NCBI GenBank assembly: GCA_001792115.1
Contig: MGFX01000006.1
Span: 18,537-82,536 of the forward strand
Length of the DNA: 64,000 nucleotides
Direction: 5' to 3'
DNA from: Candidatus Woesebacteria bacterium RBG_16_42_24
Lineage (GTDB): Bacteria; Patescibacteriota; Microgenomatia; UBA8517
The notes beneath the pieces were generated by a model. That model had not been told where the DNA came from. It was given only the letters and a program-made list of their open reading frames with translations, and ran no database searches. Below, one piece after another: positions 2,754 through 59,565 of the stretch (positions within the stretch are counted from its first letter, which is position 1; each line of letters begins with the position of its first letter). The position numbers were made by a program, and so were the translations under genes.

Positions 2754-3980
2754 TTATTTTATAGTTACTGCGTAGAGGTTGGGGAGGGTGTCGGTAGCAC
2801 CGAGATTTGTGAGAATAATAATTCTGTCGGTAGAGAGAATCGGAAATGCGTTTGGGGTAATATACGAGCCAGAATAGACAACCTGACGGTTGGTCCCATC
2901 GTAGTCCATGATTGTTACCTTCCCTTCTTGAGCCAATACCAGGTGGCCTGAAGTTGAGAACCAGGTAAGTTTTGGAATAGAATTTCCAGTTTCCACAATT
3001 TCTGAATTGGTTACTCTATTCCAGTTTCCAATTTGGGTTTCTTCTTCCGAAATCAAAAAATTTCTGTCTTCTTTGATATCGTAAACATAAGTTCTACCCT
3101 CCTTAATATCCCTTTCTTGTTTTTGGGTTGAGGCGCCTGGGAGCTCTTTGACTACCCCCGATGGAATTATAGCCTCCGAGCTTGCCTGGTAGAGAATTTT
3201 GGTCTCATCAGGGGAGAAGGTTAAATATTTCGTTTTCCTAGTTAAAATATCGGCAATTTCGGGATGCAAGCTTTTGACTTGTGCAGCGAGTTTTAAATCA
3301 GCCTTCTTTTGCCACTCGGCAAGTAGTTCCTCTTTCTTTGTGGCGACATTTACCCTCTCCCTTTGGGGGGTGAATGTCCCCGCATCGAGCACAAAAACTC
3401 CTGTGAGTGTGGTTAGCATTATTTCCCTTCCGTCCGGAGAAAATGTCCAAGTAGCGCCTCTCAAATCGCCATCTGTAATTTGCCTTGGTTCTCGGGCAAA
3501 TCCAAGAGGAAGATTTAGAGTGTCTATGACCCAGAGACCCCCACTATCATTTCCATTTGCAACCGCTACCGAATAGGCAATTCTTCCGAAGTCGGACGAA
3601 GCAACGGGGAAAATACTTCCCGAGAAACTTACGGGTGTTAAGGAGGGGACTGACTTAAATAGATGGGCGATAGCCTCTGTAACAATTTCCTTTTGAATTT
3701 CTAACCTCTTACCCCAGGTAATATAACCCTCTTTTCTGAATTCTATATCGTAAGTGCCTGGAGAGAGCGAGATTGTTGTATCTGTTGCATTTACTAGCTC
3801 GCCATTTACAAAAACCTGGGCGCCTGATGGATCAGATTCAACCACCAAAAGGCCATTTGGGCTAAATTTAAAGGTTTTTATATCAAACCTGTAACCTCTT
3901 GCATAAAGAGATACAAAAAGTCCCAGAACGCCGACTACAATTAAGGTTATCAAAAAAACTGCAACTCTGACTTTTGTCAC
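2754..3980 (-). CDS. PEGA-domain membrane-anchored protein with a beta-propeller-like C-terminal region
   Basis: N-terminal transmembrane helix followed by a PEGA-like segment (SDPSGAQVFVNGELVNATDTTISLSPGTYDIEFRKEGY); divergent from mreB. Confidence 0.55.
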   Translation of the reverse strand: MTKVRVAVFLITLIVVGVLGLFVSLYARGYRFDIKTFKFSPNGLLVVESDPSGAQVFVNGELVNATDTTISLSPGTYDIEFRKEGYITWGKRLEIQKEIVTEAIAHLFKSVPSLTPVSFSGSIFPVASSDFGRIAYSVAVANGNDSGGLWVIDTLNLPLGFAREPRQITDGDLRGATWTFSPDGREIMLTTLTGVFVLDAGTFTPQRERVNVATKKEELLAEWQKKADLKLAAQVKSLHPEIADILTRKTKYLTFSPDETKILYQASSEAIIPSGVVKELPGASTQKQERDIKEGRTYVYDIKEDRNFLISEEETQIGNWNRVTNSEIVETGNSIPKLTWFSTSGHLVLAQEGKVTIMDYDGTNRQVVYSGSYITPNAFPILSTDRIIILTNLGATDTLPNLYAVTIK

Positions 3981-27805: not shown

Positions 27806-28570
27806 ATGAATCATTCCCTCCCTAGCATGCGGAAACGTTACCTGCATAAATCGCAAACCGGTCTGGTTGGCTTTCTCCCCATTTTAGTTTTAGGAGTACT
27901 TACCATTTCTATAATCATGCTTTCTTCATATTTGAGTAGAGAGGGAGTGTCGTTTGATATTAGGGAACAAGCCGTGTATGAGCAGATCTGTCCCGGATCG
28001 GTGAGTGCTTATCCTAGCTCGTGTGTTGTTACAGAAGGAGCTACGGCACCCTGCCAAGATATTAAGATATCTTGGGATTTTCCCGGCTGTCAAAATGTGA
28101 CGGTAGATGGGACGGGGGTTGGTATTCCGGGTGGCCCTTTGGCCTATGGAAACTCAGGGTCGTTTTTCACTGACGTTTATCCTCCGGGGGCCGACTTTTA
28201 CTTTTACGCAAATGCGGGCTCCGACCAAATAAACCATTTAAGAGTAAATGCTAGACACCAATCCACCAGTAGTCCGGATGGGGAGATTAGAGTTAGCCCC
28301 CGACCTTGTCAAATTTGTTCGGGTGGAGGTTTGTCAGCAACTTGTACCGTGAGAGTAGAATGGAGCATCTGGAATGCTAAGAAGCCGAGGGTAATGATTA
28401 AACTTGCTGGTTTACCCAAAACAGAATGGGATAATAAGACGACTGGAGTTTCTGAGTATGAACTCAGAAATAATACTCTCTTCAAGTATGTTTGGTTTGG
28501 GGTGTACGACGGATATACATTATTGGACTCAGCAGACTCTTTTATAGAGTATGTGGGTTGTAATGGATAA
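27806..28570 (+). CDS. hypothetical membrane-anchored/secreted protein (first cassette)
   Basis: N-terminal transmembrane helix; Cys-containing extracytoplasmic domain; bounded by att-like copies 1 and 2. Confidence 0.45.
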   Translation: MNHSLPSMRKRYLHKSQTGLVGFLPILVLGVLTISIIMLSSYLSREGVSFDIREQAVYEQICPGSVSAYPSSCVVTEGATAPCQDIKISWDFPGCQNVTVDGTGVGIPGGPLAYGNSGSFFTDVYPPGADFYFYANAGSDQINHLRVNARHQSTSSPDGEIRVSPRPCQICSGGGLSATCTVRVEWSIWNAKKPRVMIKLAGLPKTEWDNKTTGVSEYELRNNTLFKYVWFGVYDGYTLLDSADSFIEYVGCNG

Positions 28571-28607
28571 ATAAGCACTCCAAAGGATACTGCTTACACA
28601 ATTTCCA

Positions 28608-28654
28608 ACCATGCTCTGGCTTTGGTTTACGAGTCTGGGATTATCCAGGCTCGG
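28608..28654. repeat. att-like sequence, copy 2
   Basis: accatgctctggctttggtttacgagtctgggattatccaggctcgg. Confidence 0.75.
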
Positions 28655-28745
28655 GTCAGACTTGGGTGAACCATGAGCTTGGGGCTGGGACAGGAAGACT
28701 AAAGCCACCTTTAAAGGCTGGTCCTTTATAGGAGCATTCAAGAAA

Positions 28746-28836
28746 ACCCCGATTTATTCGGAGATGGATTGAACGCTCATATGTCATCCTCGTTTAGACG
28801 AGGAAACCGCGGACTTAAGTCCGCGGAGGATGTCAT
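28746..28836. ncRNA. conserved multi-hairpin structured element, copy 1 (function unknown: small RNA, ssDNA recombination site or terminator)
   Basis: Conserved arms ggaGATGgATTGAACGCTcATATGTCATCCTC and GGAGGATGTCATA enclose three hairpins (ccga-tttat-tcgg; cctcgt-ttag-acgagg; ccgcggactt/aagtccgcgg) that differ from copy 2 by compensatory changes. Confidence 0.45.
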
Positions 28837-28845
28837 AAGGAACTA

Positions 28846-29466
28846 CTATTTCTGAAGACTTATTTCTGCCAAAAACTCCTTAATTTCACTGTCGTCCTTC
28901 TTATGGCCACTTAAATAATCTATCCTTTCCGAATAGTCTAGATCATCAAAATAAGACAGCTGTTCTCTGAAAAGTTTCTCATTAAACTCTTTTTTGAAAA
29001 TCTCCCTGGCTTTATTTATAACTTCATTTATAGTGTGTTTTTTAAATGCGAAAAATAAATCCACATAGTCCTTCCATTTGGCTCTTCTTCCCAGAGAATA
29101 GGCTTTCATAGAGGCGAGTGTAAGTATATCCGGCATGTTAATAAACTCTCCGAGCCTTTCTCTAAATTCAATCGTAAAGGGGAACTTTAAGAAGGTAAGT
29201 TTGACCGATGCCACAACGACCGTTAGTTCGTTCATTTCATCGACAAGAGTACTTTCTATGGGGTGAAGACCTCTTATTGAATTTGCTATTTTTTCATTAT
29301 TAATAGCCTCAAGGGAAGCCAAATCAAAATCAACCGACCTTCTATGTCCAATCTGGAGAGCCATTGCAGTGCCGCCAACTAATCCGAATTTATCCGAGAA
29401 CTTAGTGATAATCGGAAGAAGCAGCCTTTGTCCTTCCGATAAAACCTCTTCATGCATATTTTGCAA
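28846..29466 (-). CDS. minimal nucleotidyltransferase, AbiEii/DUF1814-like, module 2
   Basis: GGTAMALQIGHRRSVDFDL; paralog of 7124-7735 and 30101-30739 at about 35-40% identity. Confidence 0.6.
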   Translation of the reverse strand: MQNMHEEVLSEGQRLLLPIITKFSDKFGLVGGTAMALQIGHRRSVDFDLASLEAINNEKIANSIRGLHPIESTLVDEMNELTVVVASVKLTFLKFPFTIEFRERLGEFINMPDILTLASMKAYSLGRRAKWKDYVDLFFAFKKHTINEVINKAREIFKKEFNEKLFREQLSYFDDLDYSERIDYLSGHKKDDSEIKEFLAEISLQK

Positions 29467-29707
29467 AATAATTTTGGAAGTAATTTAGCGTACGCTTTTT
29501 TAAATTTACCCTTTTACCCCTCTTTATTTCTTCAAAAAGAGATTTCATTTTGGAAATACCCAAAACTTTCTCGGCTTCCATAACGTCACCCCAGTCGCCA
29601 TAGGACAGAATGTGTTCCAGGGCGCTTTTGTCAGATAAAGCCTTTTTGTCCTTGATATACCAGGCTAAATATGGCTTCCCCTCTAATATTTTTTGAAGCA
29701 TACTCAT
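29450..29707 (-). CDS. small partner protein of nucleotidyltransferase module 2
   Basis: 85 aa; overlaps the downstream nucleotidyltransferase by 17 nt; ILSYGDWGDV...LNYFQNYF matches the module-3 small protein VLNLGDREAV...LNFWQKIL. Confidence 0.45.
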   Translation of the reverse strand: MSMLQKILEGKPYLAWYIKDKKALSDKSALEHILSYGDWGDVMEAEKVLGISKMKSLFEEIKRGKRVNLKKRTLNYFQNYFAKYA

Positions 29708-29832: not shown

Positions 29833-30123
29833 ATGAGCGTGCCTAAATTCTTACAACCCTATTTAGCTTCGTATGATTTGTCAAAGTTAGACAAAGATAG
29901 TAAGGCCGTGCGGGAAGAGATTATTACCCAGGTTCTTAATTTGGGTGACAGGGAAGCTGTCGGGTGGGTTTTTGATAATTATAATATGGACCAGGTTAGA
30001 GATGTTCTGAAAAAGCCAAAACGTGGTTTATGGTTTGAAGAATCTCTTAATTTTTGGCAAAAAATACTTGGCATTGAAGCCAAAGATTCACTAAATAAAG
30101 ATGCCATATTTACAAATCCTTAA
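29833..30123 (+). CDS. small partner protein of nucleotidyltransferase module 3
   Basis: 96 aa; overlaps the downstream nucleotidyltransferase by 23 nt. Confidence 0.45.
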   Translation: MSVPKFLQPYLASYDLSKLDKDSKAVREEIITQVLNLGDREAVGWVFDNYNMDQVRDVLKKPKRGLWFEESLNFWQKILGIEAKDSLNKDAIFTNP

Positions 30124-30739
30124 TGATAGGCAGTTGGACTTGATTAAGGGTCTGGACTTCCTTGGCGGAGAAGTTTACTTGGCGGGGGGCACCGGTTTGG
30201 CTCTACAGCTTGGTCATAGAACGTCGCTTGATTTTGATTTCTACTCCAAAATTCGTTTTGATCCTCAACTGCTGGCTGCTTCGTTTCAGGAAAAGTCTAA
30301 AGACTTAAAAATTAATAGTATTGTCAAAGATACGCTTATTCTTACCGTCGATGGTGTAAGTTTTTCTCTTTTTTATTACCCTTATAAGATGATAGGAAAG
30401 AAGGTTAAAGTGGAGAGTATAAATGTGGCTTCTATTCAGGATATTGCCGCAATGAAGCTGGTTGCGGTTGCCATGAGGGGAAAAAGAAGAGATTTTATTG
30501 ACATTTATTATCTATTGAAAAAATATTCTCTTAAAGACCTTTTGGGTTTTGTAAAGACAAAATATCCTTCGTTTGAAGAGATGATGGTTCTTAAGGGACT
30601 GATTTATTTTGAAGATGCAGAAGACGAAGACCTGGCGAGGGGGATAAAAGTTCTTGCTAAACACTTTTCCTGGGAAGACGCCAAGAAAAAAATTCTTCAA
30701 GAAGTTAAGCGCTACCAGCTTGCGATAATTAGAAAGTGA
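30101..30739 (+). CDS. minimal nucleotidyltransferase, AbiEii/DUF1814-like, module 3
   Basis: GGTGLALQLGHRTSLDFDF. Confidence 0.6.
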   Translation: MPYLQILNDRQLDLIKGLDFLGGEVYLAGGTGLALQLGHRTSLDFDFYSKIRFDPQLLAASFQEKSKDLKINSIVKDTLILTVDGVSFSLFYYPYKMIGKKVKVESINVASIQDIAAMKLVAVAMRGKRRDFIDIYYLLKKYSLKDLLGFVKTKYPSFEEMMVLKGLIYFEDAEDEDLARGIKVLAKHFSWEDAKKKILQEVKRYQLAIIRK

Positions 30740-58388: not shown

Positions 58389-58634
58389 CTAGCTATCAAT
58401 TAGCTTCCGCATCAACATGTTTCCTTCTCCGGTATTTTTGAAGTACCACTCACGCTTTAAGGCTTCGATTTTAGAACTATATGTTTCTTTATAGATCAAT
58501 ATAAACGGTATCCTGGCTTTTGTTGATTTCGATTGACCATTGTTATGCTGTCTAAGTCGTCTCTTAAGGTTGTCGGTGGTTCCTATATAGAGGTTATGGT
58601 CTTTTTGACTTCTTAGGATATAAAGATAGTGCAT
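58389..58634 (-). CDS. GIY-YIG nuclease family small protein
   Basis: YLYILRSQKDHNLYIGTTDNLKRRLRQH...W. Confidence 0.7.
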   Translation of the reverse strand: MHYLYILRSQKDHNLYIGTTDNLKRRLRQHNNGQSKSTKARIPFILIYKETYSSKIEALKREWYFKNTGEGNMLMRKLIDS

Positions 58635-59083: not shown

Positions 59084-59155
59084 TCTCTCCGGGAGCCGAC
59101 GAGTGGGATTGAACCACTGACCTTCGCTTTACAAAAGCGTTGCTCTACCGCTGAG
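59084..59155 (-). tRNA. tRNA-Thr (anticodon UGU)
   Basis: Reverse complement GCCGACGTAGCTCAGCGGTAGAGCAACGCTTTTGTAAAGCGAAGGTCAGTGGTTCAATCCCACTCGTCGGCT. Confidence 0.8.
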
Positions 59156-59199
59156 CTACGTCGGCTTGACAGATGAATTATAACAGCATTCAAGAAGAC

Positions 59200-59290
59200 C
59201 CCCAAATATTATTTGGAGGATGAATTGAACGCTGATATGTCATCCTCCCTTAAGGGAGACCCCACACTTTCAGTGTGGGAGGATGTCATA
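59200..59290. ncRNA. conserved multi-hairpin structured element, copy 2
   Basis: Same conserved arms as 28746-28836; its hairpins are ccaaat-att-atttgg; ctccc-ttaa-gggag; cccacact-ttc-agtgtggg. Confidence 0.45.
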
Positions 59291-59382
59291 GCAGAAAATG
59301 AGGCTTCTCCGAAGCTCCAAGGGATTTATTTTAAGTTTTCTTTCCCGGTATTTTTTTGAAAAGAAATACCGAGTAGCATTTT

Positions 59383-59527
59383 GACCCTGCTTCAGGATCG
59401 GGCAAAACTGTCCTGGAAAACTTCCAGGTGGGTGAGCTGCCCCGTACCATTACGGTGCAGGGACTCCGCCCTCCCGATTGAAAACGTGGTCAGGATAGTT
59501 TTGCCTCGGTACCCCTTAGCAGGGTCA
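59383..59527 (-). ncRNA. candidate SRP RNA (4.5S-like) or another long-hairpin structured RNA
   Basis: 145-nt imperfect hairpin closed by gaccctgc/gcagggtc and ggcaaaactgtcctg/caggatagttttgcc; on the minus strand, a GUAA tetraloop with flanking GGCGGAGUCC and GGGGCAGCUC resembling SRP domain IV (GGUCAGGUCC / GGAAGCAGCC). Confidence 0.3.
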
Positions 59528-59565
59528 CTTATATTGTAACAAATGGGGTCAAGGGCGGAAAGTCT

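Follow-up and report, generated by a model that had tools for sequence, protein, structure and literature searches.

A dispersed, probably mobile palindromic DNA repeat that can sit in-frame in genes of Microgenomates bacteria

What kind of object is a hairpin-rich element that occurs twice, with different hairpin sequences, in a 64,000-nt stretch of contig MGFX01000006.1 of Candidatus Woesebacteria bacterium RBG_16_42_24? That stretch is referred to here as the window and supplies the coordinates, while L numbers designate other loci that were compared with it. A first-pass annotation of the same DNA had proposed a small structured RNA, possibly a ribozyme, or a single-strand recombination site. 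The evidence presented below indicates that the element is probably a dispersed, mobile palindromic DNA repeat, able to sit in-frame in genes, and not an RNA gene. Both window copies most likely belong to a non-autonomous interspersed palindromic repeat of the Microgenomates/Woesebacteria, within the candidate phyla radiation (CPR), with a modal unit of 108 bp. In its behaviour this repeat would be the analogue, within the CPR, of the palindromic elements of Rickettsia (RPEs). It occurs in multiple dispersed copies, some of them identical at different loci; its sites are found filled and empty; it resides in-frame in genes; and its hairpins covary without a bias towards one RNA strand.

The presence of two related hairpin elements in the window was confirmed, as a pattern for their shared 29-nt core, GATGRATTGAACGCTSATATGTCATCCTC, matched at 28763 and 59219 only, and in none of 100 shuffles. 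The two loci had been correctly located before, but the extents first given to them (28746-28836 and 59200-59290) fell short, since the conserved block spans 28726-28836 in copy 1 (111 nt) and 59178-59289 in copy 2 (112 nt). On its left side this wider block adds AGCATTCAAGAA and a terminal TTATAA, and AGCATTCAAGAA pairs with TTGAACGCT to form a conserved helix, P2. A second conserved long-range helix, P1, joins TATGTCATCC with GGATGTCATA. Read on the minus strand, the element begins and ends as ATGACATCC...GCTGTTAT. In that reading P1 is ATGACATCC(TCC) paired with (GGA)GGATGACAT and encloses two variable hairpins, P1a and P1b; P2 is CAGCGTTCAA paired with TTGAATGCTG and encloses an internal loop and a third variable hairpin, P3; and there is an invariant core, GATGACATATCAGCGTTCAATTCAT. 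P3, P1b and P1a are the three hairpins noticed at first, and they do differ between the copies while remaining paired in both. The two shared strands described with them are also conserved, but the first had been read with a one-base slip (copy 1 has GGAGATGGATT, not GGAGGATGGATT), and the pairing then implied is not conserved. A riboswitch-like alternative pairing, GGAGGATGA with TCATCCTCC, was rejected, being broken in copy 1 and unsupported by the family alignment.

Both strands of both copies fold more stably than shuffled sequences, with RNA z-scores of -5.8/-5.6 for the minus strand and -4.9/-4.6 for the plus strand, and DNA z-scores for the two strands of -7.3/-8.1 and -5.9/-5.6. Both copies are intergenic. 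The plus strand of the core has the potential to encode a peptide, ...LNAHMSS... in copy 1 and DELNADMSS in copy 2. In outline, the element combines the conserved helices P1 and P2 with a core of about 25 nt that does not vary and with as many as three local hairpins, which differ in sequence between subfamilies yet remain paired.

The repeat is widespread among Microgenomates. The 21-nt core pattern TTGAACGCTNATATGTCATCC was scanned against 185k species genomes, one genome per species, and was found at 41 places, of which 40 were full or edge-truncated copies. Their hosts were Woesebacteria, Blackburnbacteria, 'Microgenomatus' or unnamed Patescibacteria metagenome-assembled genomes (MAGs), all of Microgenomates type, and single MAGs carried as many as about 9-10, 6 and 4 copies. 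The sole match outside the CPR, at L034 184-204 in a Desulfobacteraceae MAG, was dismissed as a chance 21-mer, with no element around it and a score of 19 bits. Viral contigs were without any core-pattern match. A pattern for the 3' end was present in more than 118 metagenome contigs, and a covariance model (R1) confirmed 82 of these at E≤1e-6. At least 97 distinct copies were found overall in Woesebacteria/Microgenomates MAGs and metagenomes, and further covarying homologs, whose lack would have counted against the first-pass observation, do exist.

Near-identical copies at separate loci of one genome (110/110 identical positions for L007/L012, 109/110 for L003/L010 and 111/113 for L017/L035) mark recent duplication or spread. 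The same hairpin variants turn up, differently combined, from genome to genome, and the element also varies in length. Short forms of 76-80 nt (L004, L009, L029) have no P1a or P1b, and their P1 is capped by a tetraloop; other variants carry extra nested hairpins (L028, L039, L022b); and mini-derivatives of 49-60 nt exist. In the 49-nt forms L145 and L079 the 5' end is joined directly to P3 and the 3' end, and L166 has just the P1 hairpin and a closed P2 hairpin. The short and mini forms suggest modular deletion and help to define the minimal ends. Assemblies often break in or beside the element. Several independent metagenome assemblies of contigs that carry the M50 protease gene of the window (L043, L044, L047) stop inside copy 2 or just beyond it, a sign that assemblies of these genomes are fragmented by the repeat. 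A set of MAGs that carry both the element and CPR-like genes is titled 'uncultured Gammaproteobacteria bacterium', an automated label of binchicken co-assemblies (CAYTZB, CAYIKF, CAZBTH), the records with the element being L007, L012, L013, L016, L017, L020, L021, L027, L035 and L041. Because the element is Microgenomates-specific and is accompanied there by CPR-like genes, this label is probably wrong.

Covariation across the family is strong. In an alignment of 38 copies (A2), with a consensus structure of 34 pairs, 96.1% of paired cells could pair against 83.5% in shuffles, and the covariation score was 0.307 against 0.088; neither value was reached by any of 500 shuffles, and slid registers of the alignment gave only 37-45% pairing. 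The compensatory base changes first seen between two copies were upheld family-wide, with 17 of the 34 pairs changing on both sides (again reached in 0/500 shuffles), as was the inference that the hairpins are under selection. The changes are unevenly distributed. The sequences of P1 and P2 are conserved, and compensatory events in them are single: P1 is 99.1% paired with one compensatory C-G pair, and in P2 copy 1 has G-C at columns 63/114, compensatory relative to the consensus C-G. P1a, P1b and P3 vary freely, with all five pairs of P1a changing on both sides across the family and seven of the eight pairs of P3 covarying. Quasipalindromes are subject to intrastrand templated correction, a process established in E. 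coli genetics, and part of the apparent hairpin compensation could have arisen by this route without selection.

A frame of the element that is free of stop codons, in the plus orientation of the window, reads ...ITAFKKT-x-GDELNADMSSSFRG-x-GEDV.... Among 97 unique copies, this DELNADMSSS frame was open in 79 (81%), against 14% expected from shuffles, whereas the other two frames of the same strand were open in none. Copy lengths were clustered, with 53 copies of 108 nt, nine of 111 nt and five of 105 nt, and 73% of the 97 were divisible by three. The excess of open frames may go back to a small number of master copies from which the family descends; it would also be expected if the family draws disproportionately on copies that can persist within genes. 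In many loci the element frame is continuous with long open reading frames (ORFs) on both sides. A screen of 95 unique copies that demanded at least 60 aa of open frame on each side of the element returned nine internal copies, all with a length divisible by three, eight of them in one orientation and frame and one in the opposite orientation. Together with Pfam-validated cases nearer protein termini, at least 13 copies lie in-frame inside conserved genes. In Pfam matches the host domains flanked the insert or ran across it, marking the hosts as genuine conserved proteins (Table 1). The orientation bias of the copies inside ORFs may come in part from the terminator-like P3 and U-tract, which lie on the antisense strand.

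The encoded peptide gave a similar picture. An exhaustive profile search, at E≤1e-3, matched 81 protein clusters, which included many short ORFs as well as long, unrelated proteins (Wzy_C, PMT_2, AftD-type GT-C, DEAD-box helicase and pilin-like). A word-indexed search of a protein database with the peptide recovered just 8 short ORFs, and the long hosts surfaced in the exhaustive search. GenBank annotates one insert-bearing product, P0085, as a 181-aa D-tyrosyl-tRNA deacylase (Dtd). In an AlphaFold2 model of this protein the host fold had a predicted local distance difference test score (pLDDT) of 80-93, while the insert (residues 115-151) fell below 50 and split a helix; the model is compatible with a tolerated loop but is no evidence for one. 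When MurC was aligned to solved structures, the region of the insert was variable and the insert boundaries were not sharpened. Two hosts deserve separate mention. The uppP gene of L108 holds two nearly identical copies, with model matches at 3312-3428 and 3561-3677, the first of which is spanned by the BacA Pfam match. The sole in-ORF copy of opposite orientation, encoding the peptide DILPALKSGVSLQRRMTYQRSIHLRNELRSVLECCY, lies in L101 (3212-4942, minus strand), within a 577-aa membrane-protein-like ORF that has no Pfam match; it may represent a genuine fusion, a pseudogene, or the chance joining of two ORFs.

Filled and empty sites were recognized in two comparisons. The closest Dtd orthologs, which are 80% identical outside the insert, have 145 aa instead of 181, exactly 36 aa (108 nt) fewer. 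The filled site reads TACTTT[ATAACAGC...GGATGTC]ATAAGTAAG, and the empty sites read TATTTT|GTTGATAAG in L048 and GTCAATCAA, at the same point, in L049. The net gain is 108 nt, but copies share a conserved block of 112 nt (TTATAACAGC...GGATGTCAT), and four terminal bases must therefore have been present already in the target. In the second comparison, a degenerate intergenic copy in L022 separates two genes that are directly adjacent in the syntenic region of L008; in L022 the position of the terminal ATAA of the element is occupied by ATGA, the start codon of a host gene. The elements of L008 and L022 had also been considered as an ancient orthologous pair, which would argue for purifying selection. 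This was rejected because orthology was not established and the neighbours differ, the immediate ones being GroEL and a glycosylase in L008 and another ORF in L022.

The two ends of the element are unequal. ATAA/TTAT is kept at one end in 37 of 40 copies, whereas the base outside the other end varies (T in 27, A in 10, G in 3) and differs even among near-identical copies of one genome. The termini are inverted relative to each other at 8 of 10 bases (TTATGACATC versus TTATAACAGC, or TTATRACAKC), and the outer TT at one end is kept in just 23-27 of the 40. Two junction models fit equally well: insertion next to TTAT without duplication, and a 2-bp AT duplication centred in TTATAA.

Table 1. Parts of the two window copies (window coordinates, minus-strand sequences) and genes that host in-frame copies (loci named by L number)
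Feature	Position	Strand	Sequence, product or support
Copy 1, whole	28726..28836	-	ATGACATCC...CTATAA; model R1 114.6 bits, E 1.9e-23
Copy 1, P1 5' strand	28825..28836	-	ATGACATCCTCC; pairs with 28781-28791; sequence conserved family-wide
Copy 1, variable hairpin P1a	28807..28826	-	CCGCGGAC-TTAA-GTCCGCGG; folding and family alignment
Copy 1, variable hairpin P1b	28788..28803	-	CCTCGT-CTAA-ACGAGG; overlaps inner part of P1 3' strand
Copy 1, invariant core	28764..28788	-	GATGACATATGAGCGTTCAATCCAT; the 3' strand of P1, the 5' strand of P2 and joining bases
Copy 1, variable hairpin P3	28747..28763	-	CTCCGA-ATAAA-TCGGGG, then TTTTCTT; intrinsic-terminator-like
Copy 1, P2 3' strand and terminus	28726..28741	-	TTGAATGCTC and terminal CTATAA (family consensus TTATAA)
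Copy 2, whole	59178..59289	-	112 nt; model R1 118.7 bits, E 2.1e-24
Copy 2, P1 5' strand	59278..59289	-	ATGACATCCTCC; pairs with 59237-59248
Copy 2, variable hairpin P1a	59261..59279	-	CCCACAC-TGAAA-GTGTGGG
Copy 2, variable hairpin P1b	59245..59258	-	CTCCC-TTAA-GGGAG
Copy 2, invariant core	59220..59244	-	GATGACATATCAGCGTTCAATTCAT; invariant alignment columns
Copy 2, variable hairpin P3	59199..59219	-	CCTCCAAA-TAATA-TTTGGGGG, then TCTTCTT; terminator-like
Copy 2, P2 3' strand and terminus	59178..59193	-	TTGAATGCTG and terminal TTATAA; with the next base, TGTTATAAT
Host L014			Arginyl-tRNA synthetase (ArgRS); Pfam
Host L016			MurC; Pfam
Host L031			P-type ATPase; Pfam HAD domain match spans insert
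Host L007			D-Tyr-tRNA deacylase (Dtd); Pfam match split in two
Hosts L033, L040, L001			Glycosyltransferases (GT1, PMT_2 among hosts); Pfam
Host L010			DUF192; Pfam
Host L059			Exo_endo_phos protein; Pfam
Host L082			RimK-like ligase; Pfam
Host L089			Obg/DRG-like GTPase; Pfam
Host L108 (contig Ga0210016_1018815)	3276-4274	-	UppP/BacA; two in-frame copies

The surroundings of the window copies are as follows. Copy 1 follows a nucleotidyltransferase ORF of AbiEii type (28846-29466, minus strand), which has the same orientation and whose stop codon (28846-28848) is 9 nt from the start of the copy; on its other side copy 1 lies 155 nt past the end of an ORF on the plus strand (27806-28570). The interval between that ORF and copy 1 (28571-28725, about 155 nt) contains no convincing ORF. 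Two divergent toxin modules of AbiEii type are present, at 28846-29707 (minus) and 29833-30739 (plus), with PF08843 matches of E 8e-9 and 9e-13; a small ORF precedes each and could encode an antitoxin. The AbiEii protein beside copy 1 is not on record elsewhere. Copy 2 lies between an M50 protease gene with an adjoining 6S-like region below threshold, on one side, and tRNA-Thr(tgt) at 59091-59166 on the other. Its 3' end, TGTTATAAT, is an extended -10-like box that ends 9 nt upstream of the tRNA, and a sigma-70 scan gave no full promoter match at this end. A terminator scan of the minus strand called P3 plus TTTTCTT of copy 1, and P3 of copy 2, as intrinsic-terminator-like. The 6S/SsrS RNA match, between the M50 gene and copy 2 (59380-59528, minus strand), covers the full model with 27 bits (gathering threshold 46.4; E 0.0011) and may be a divergent 6S RNA of this CPR organism. 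Within the tRNA-Thr/Tyr/Thr cluster there is a small ORF (58389-58634, minus strand) with a GIY-YIG-like N-terminus (MHYLYILRS...LYIGTTDNLKRRLRQHN), resembling the stand-alone GIY-YIG genes that are often found near tRNAs.

The obvious alternative is a structured non-coding RNA, be it a small RNA, a ribozyme or an RNA that binds protein, with several gene copies per genome and transcription from the minus strand. Covariation in the three hairpins is just what such an RNA would display, and the minus strand carries G.U pairs in P2 (37/38 copies) and in P3 of both window copies, where the plus strand has A.C mismatches; its RNA also folds well (z-scores of -5.6 to -5.8) and ends in a terminator-like 3' hairpin. 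Yet the in-frame copies in conserved protein genes are nearly all antisense to the putative RNA, truncated and mini derivatives exist, and orientation relative to neighbouring genes is random, the upstream gene being co-oriented in 16 and opposed in 20 cases among 41 copies. The 5' flanks of the copies are unrelated and share nothing, so the element has no promoter of its own. The variable stems of the 38 copies hold 12 G.U against 18 A.C pairs, which is the expectation for random transitions in double-stranded palindromes, and only the P2 G.T is fixed. Nor did known families help: Rfam 15 at gathering thresholds found tRNAs only in the whole window, and a permissive E-value search around both copies returned sub-threshold noise (HgcC at 19 of 50 bits, manA-II at 16.5 of 100, and miRNA families). 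The HgcC match of copy 1 (19 bits, E 0.045) is 31 bits short of its threshold and is absent for copy 2. A tRNA-like or T-loop reading of GCGTTCAATTC failed as well, as ARAGORN found nothing there and no T-stem can form. A small RNA or ribozyme, as the first-pass annotation had suggested, is very improbable for a dispersed repeat that lies in either orientation and in-frame in genes, without a promoter or a strand bias in its wobble pairs. A role for the element as a domesticated cis-regulatory insulator, similar to Correia, SPRITE or ERIC sequences, with P3 and its U-tract terminating transcription and the TGTTATAAT end acting as an extended -10, is unlikely too, though a little less so. It would account for the terminator-like sites called in both window copies, for the position of copy 1 close behind a co-oriented gene and of copy 2 just upstream of a co-oriented tRNA (L029 is likewise 14 nt upstream of tRNA-Arg), and for the conservation of TGnTATAA(T/A) at the 3' end. 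However, there is no -35 element and the sigma-70 scan places no promoter there, the last four bases of the 'box' are apparently derived from the target, copies inside ORFs cannot act in such a way, and the orientation counts across the family lend no support to terminator or promoter roles. The use of copy 2 as a terminator and -10 box for tRNA-Thr, and of copy 1 as an AbiEii terminator, is plausible as a secondary exaptation.

Two further explanations have very little to commend them. The first-pass annotation had pointed to an attC-like or other site-specific single-strand recombination site marking the boundaries of gene cassettes, a notion that fits the imperfect palindromes with conserved outer strands and variable inner hairpins, the stable folding of both DNA strands, and the abutment of copy 1 on an AbiEii toxin module. 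Around the window sites and the compared loci, however, there was no integrase, cassette array or recurring recombinase; copies lie inside ORFs and upstream of tRNAs, and their neighbours are ordinary housekeeping genes. What survives of that proposal is that the element behaves as mobile DNA whose hairpins possibly form in single strands; an attC-like identity is scarcely credible. The 'cassette boundary' of copy 1 and the 'tRNA integration hotspot' of copy 2 are judged incidental, because the element simply lands at TTATAA-like sites. It is equally hard to believe that the in-ORF copies are intervening sequences at the RNA level, cut out of the mRNA or passed over by the ribosome as in T4 gene 60 or the mitochondrial 'byp' elements. 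Compact, stable hairpins inside coding regions, and the strict orientation in ORFs (8/9 in the screen), are in keeping with that idea, but all in-ORF copies are stop-free and a multiple of three in length, neither of which removal or bypass would need; the same frame is open in most copies of the family wherever they lie; and no take-off and landing codon pairs or splice motifs were noted in them.

A mobile palindromic repeat remains the preferred explanation, and a mechanism can be sketched for it. A trans-acting enzyme that reads the conserved ends, the core and the hairpins would mobilize the element, and each new copy would add 108 bp at a TTATAA-like site, either between genes, in either orientation, or inside them. 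Residence within genes as a 36-residue insertion would be possible because one of the six frames is stop-free and the length is 36 codons. In the window, both copies would be intergenic passengers. The enzyme might be a hairpin-guided single-strand transposase of the HUH/Y1 type, inserting next to TTAT without duplication, or a DDE-type cut-and-paste enzyme that makes a 2-bp AT duplication in TTATAA and recognizes the short imperfect inverted termini (TTATRACAKC). An enzyme that reads folded single strands (HUH/Y1 of IS200/IS605, or RAYT-like) is suggested because the hairpins are conserved in structure and not in sequence, the core and ends are invariant, and the conserved tetranucleotide is one-sided. 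This is a tentative proposal, and the DDE-type enzyme is about equally likely. More speculative still is the combination of a TTAT-targeting, hairpin-guided single-strand transposase with intergenic copies co-opted as terminator/-10 modules, such as that beside tRNA-Thr.

Several observations weigh against a mobile repeat of this kind. The search for linked genes and for an autonomous parent covered about 1.08 Mb of fetched loci, with an all-against-all comparison of the ORFs of 41 loci and a hunt for orphan ends; it found no transposase or recurrently linked gene near the copies, and no long element with matching ends, just truncated and mini derivatives. Neither a target duplication nor terminal inverted repeats are clear-cut. 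The filled and empty sites come from two comparisons only, both between fairly diverged genomes, which is why the exact junction is ambiguous within 4 nt. In the window itself, copy 2 is present in every contig that has the identical M50 protein and in which that position was assembled, and no polymorphism was seen at the window sites. The copies inside ORFs are read from DNA and their translation is putative, and the Dtd insert is modelled with low confidence. Finally, a cellular function could also lie behind the invariant P2 G.U pair and a core that is almost perfectly conserved from genus to genus.

Beyond the identity of the repeat, we lean towards the view that CPR/Patescibacteria have their own, independently evolved protein-coding palindromic selfish elements, which are shaped for life in genes and have repeatedly added 36-residue loops to essential enzymes, namely ArgRS, MurC, UppP (twice), Dtd and an Obg-like GTPase. 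The phrase 'shaped for life in genes' refers to the high frequency of the open frame, to the lengths centred on 105, 108 and 111 nt, and to an orientation within ORFs that avoids the terminator-like strand. If this is true, in-frame selfish DNA in essential genes would be a recurrent feature of independently reduced genomes and not an oddity of Rickettsia, with a bearing on the ways in which very small genomes put up with mobile DNA and perhaps make use of it, and on the origin of new surface loops in conserved enzymes. There are practical consequences as well. The repeat creates spurious small ORFs (among the 81 peptide-bearing protein clusters), inflates protein lengths, breaks metagenome assemblies, and can pass for covarying 'novel ncRNAs' in pipelines for RNA discovery. 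With hundreds of copies, mini-derivatives, and filled and empty sites, the family offers a clean, well-sampled system for studying the mechanism of mobilization in the CPR.

Comparison with known systems helps to place the repeat. The archaeal family HgcC (RF00062) shares a weak local match on the plus strand of copy 1 (AUGAxxUGAAC ... GGAGGAxGUCA), and given the scores above the resemblance is judged to be chance. Integron attC sites are likewise imperfect palindromes in which structure counts more than sequence, possibly as a folded single strand, but they come with an integrase, a cassette array and R/L boxes, none of which accompany the Microgenomates repeat, which also lies within genes. 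Elements derived from IS200/IS605 insertion sequences (IS), and the repetitive extragenic palindromes (REPs) and REPINs mobilized by RAYT proteins, may resemble it in design: hairpins lie near both ends, a target duplication is not obvious (although one of 2 bp would fit the present repeat equally well), a conserved tetranucleotide is seen at one end only (TTAT in the present case) with the other flank free, and the hairpin structure is kept while the hairpin sequence varies. The similarity would extend to mechanism by analogy only. No TnpA or RAYT gene was identified for the Microgenomates repeat in the fetched loci; REPs are extragenic by definition, whereas this repeat enters ORFs; and hairpins of the IS200/IS605 type stop short of the cleavage site, while that of P1 extends right to the terminus of the element. 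Bacterial MITEs (miniature transposable elements with inverted repeats), such as Correia/NEMIS of Neisseria, ERIC of enterobacteria, and BOX, RUP and SPRITE of pneumococci, are also small, non-autonomous, multicopy and hairpin-folding, can carry promoter- or terminator-like ends, and occasionally form in-frame fusions. Classical MITEs differ in having clear terminal inverted repeats, target duplications and a matching IS family, where the present repeat has inverted termini that agree at about 8 of 10 bases, a putative duplication of at most 2 bp, and no parent IS in the fetched loci.

To our knowledge, protein-coding palindromic selfish elements have so far been regarded as essentially peculiar to Rickettsia, and full-text literature searches turned up no description of such elements, whether RPE-like or MITE-like, from CPR/Patescibacteria. 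The closest parallel is with the RPEs, described as interspersed repeats, 100-150 bp long, that abound between genes as well as within coding regions (PMC1779305). Of the RPE-1 copies, nearly half are stated to be in-frame insertions into metabolic genes that are unrelated to one another, and each copy encodes a conserved peptide (PMC10969869, citing Ogata et al. 2000, Science 290:347, and 2002, Genome Res 12:808). The Microgenomates repeat was found to behave in the same way, with multiple copies of roughly 100-150 bp, dyad symmetry and folding, and residence both between genes and in-frame within them. Both are interspersed and form hairpins, both encode a conserved peptide inside unrelated housekeeping enzymes, both have lineage-specific subfamilies, and for neither is an associated transposase known. 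There are also clear differences. The hosts are unrelated, RPE-1 to RPE-10 belonging to Rickettsiales and the present repeat to Patescibacteria/Microgenomates, and the likeness would be one of behaviour alone, shared descent not being expected. An RPE is one long palindrome, whereas the Microgenomates repeat combines two conserved long-range helices with three variable local hairpins, and, unlike an RPE, it has an evident TTATAA-like target. For the inserts of the Microgenomates repeat, translation and surface location are putative. What is new here is not a class of molecule but an RPE-like family in an unrelated lineage with reduced genomes, an undescribed and unusually clean case of selfish DNA in essential genes of the CPR.

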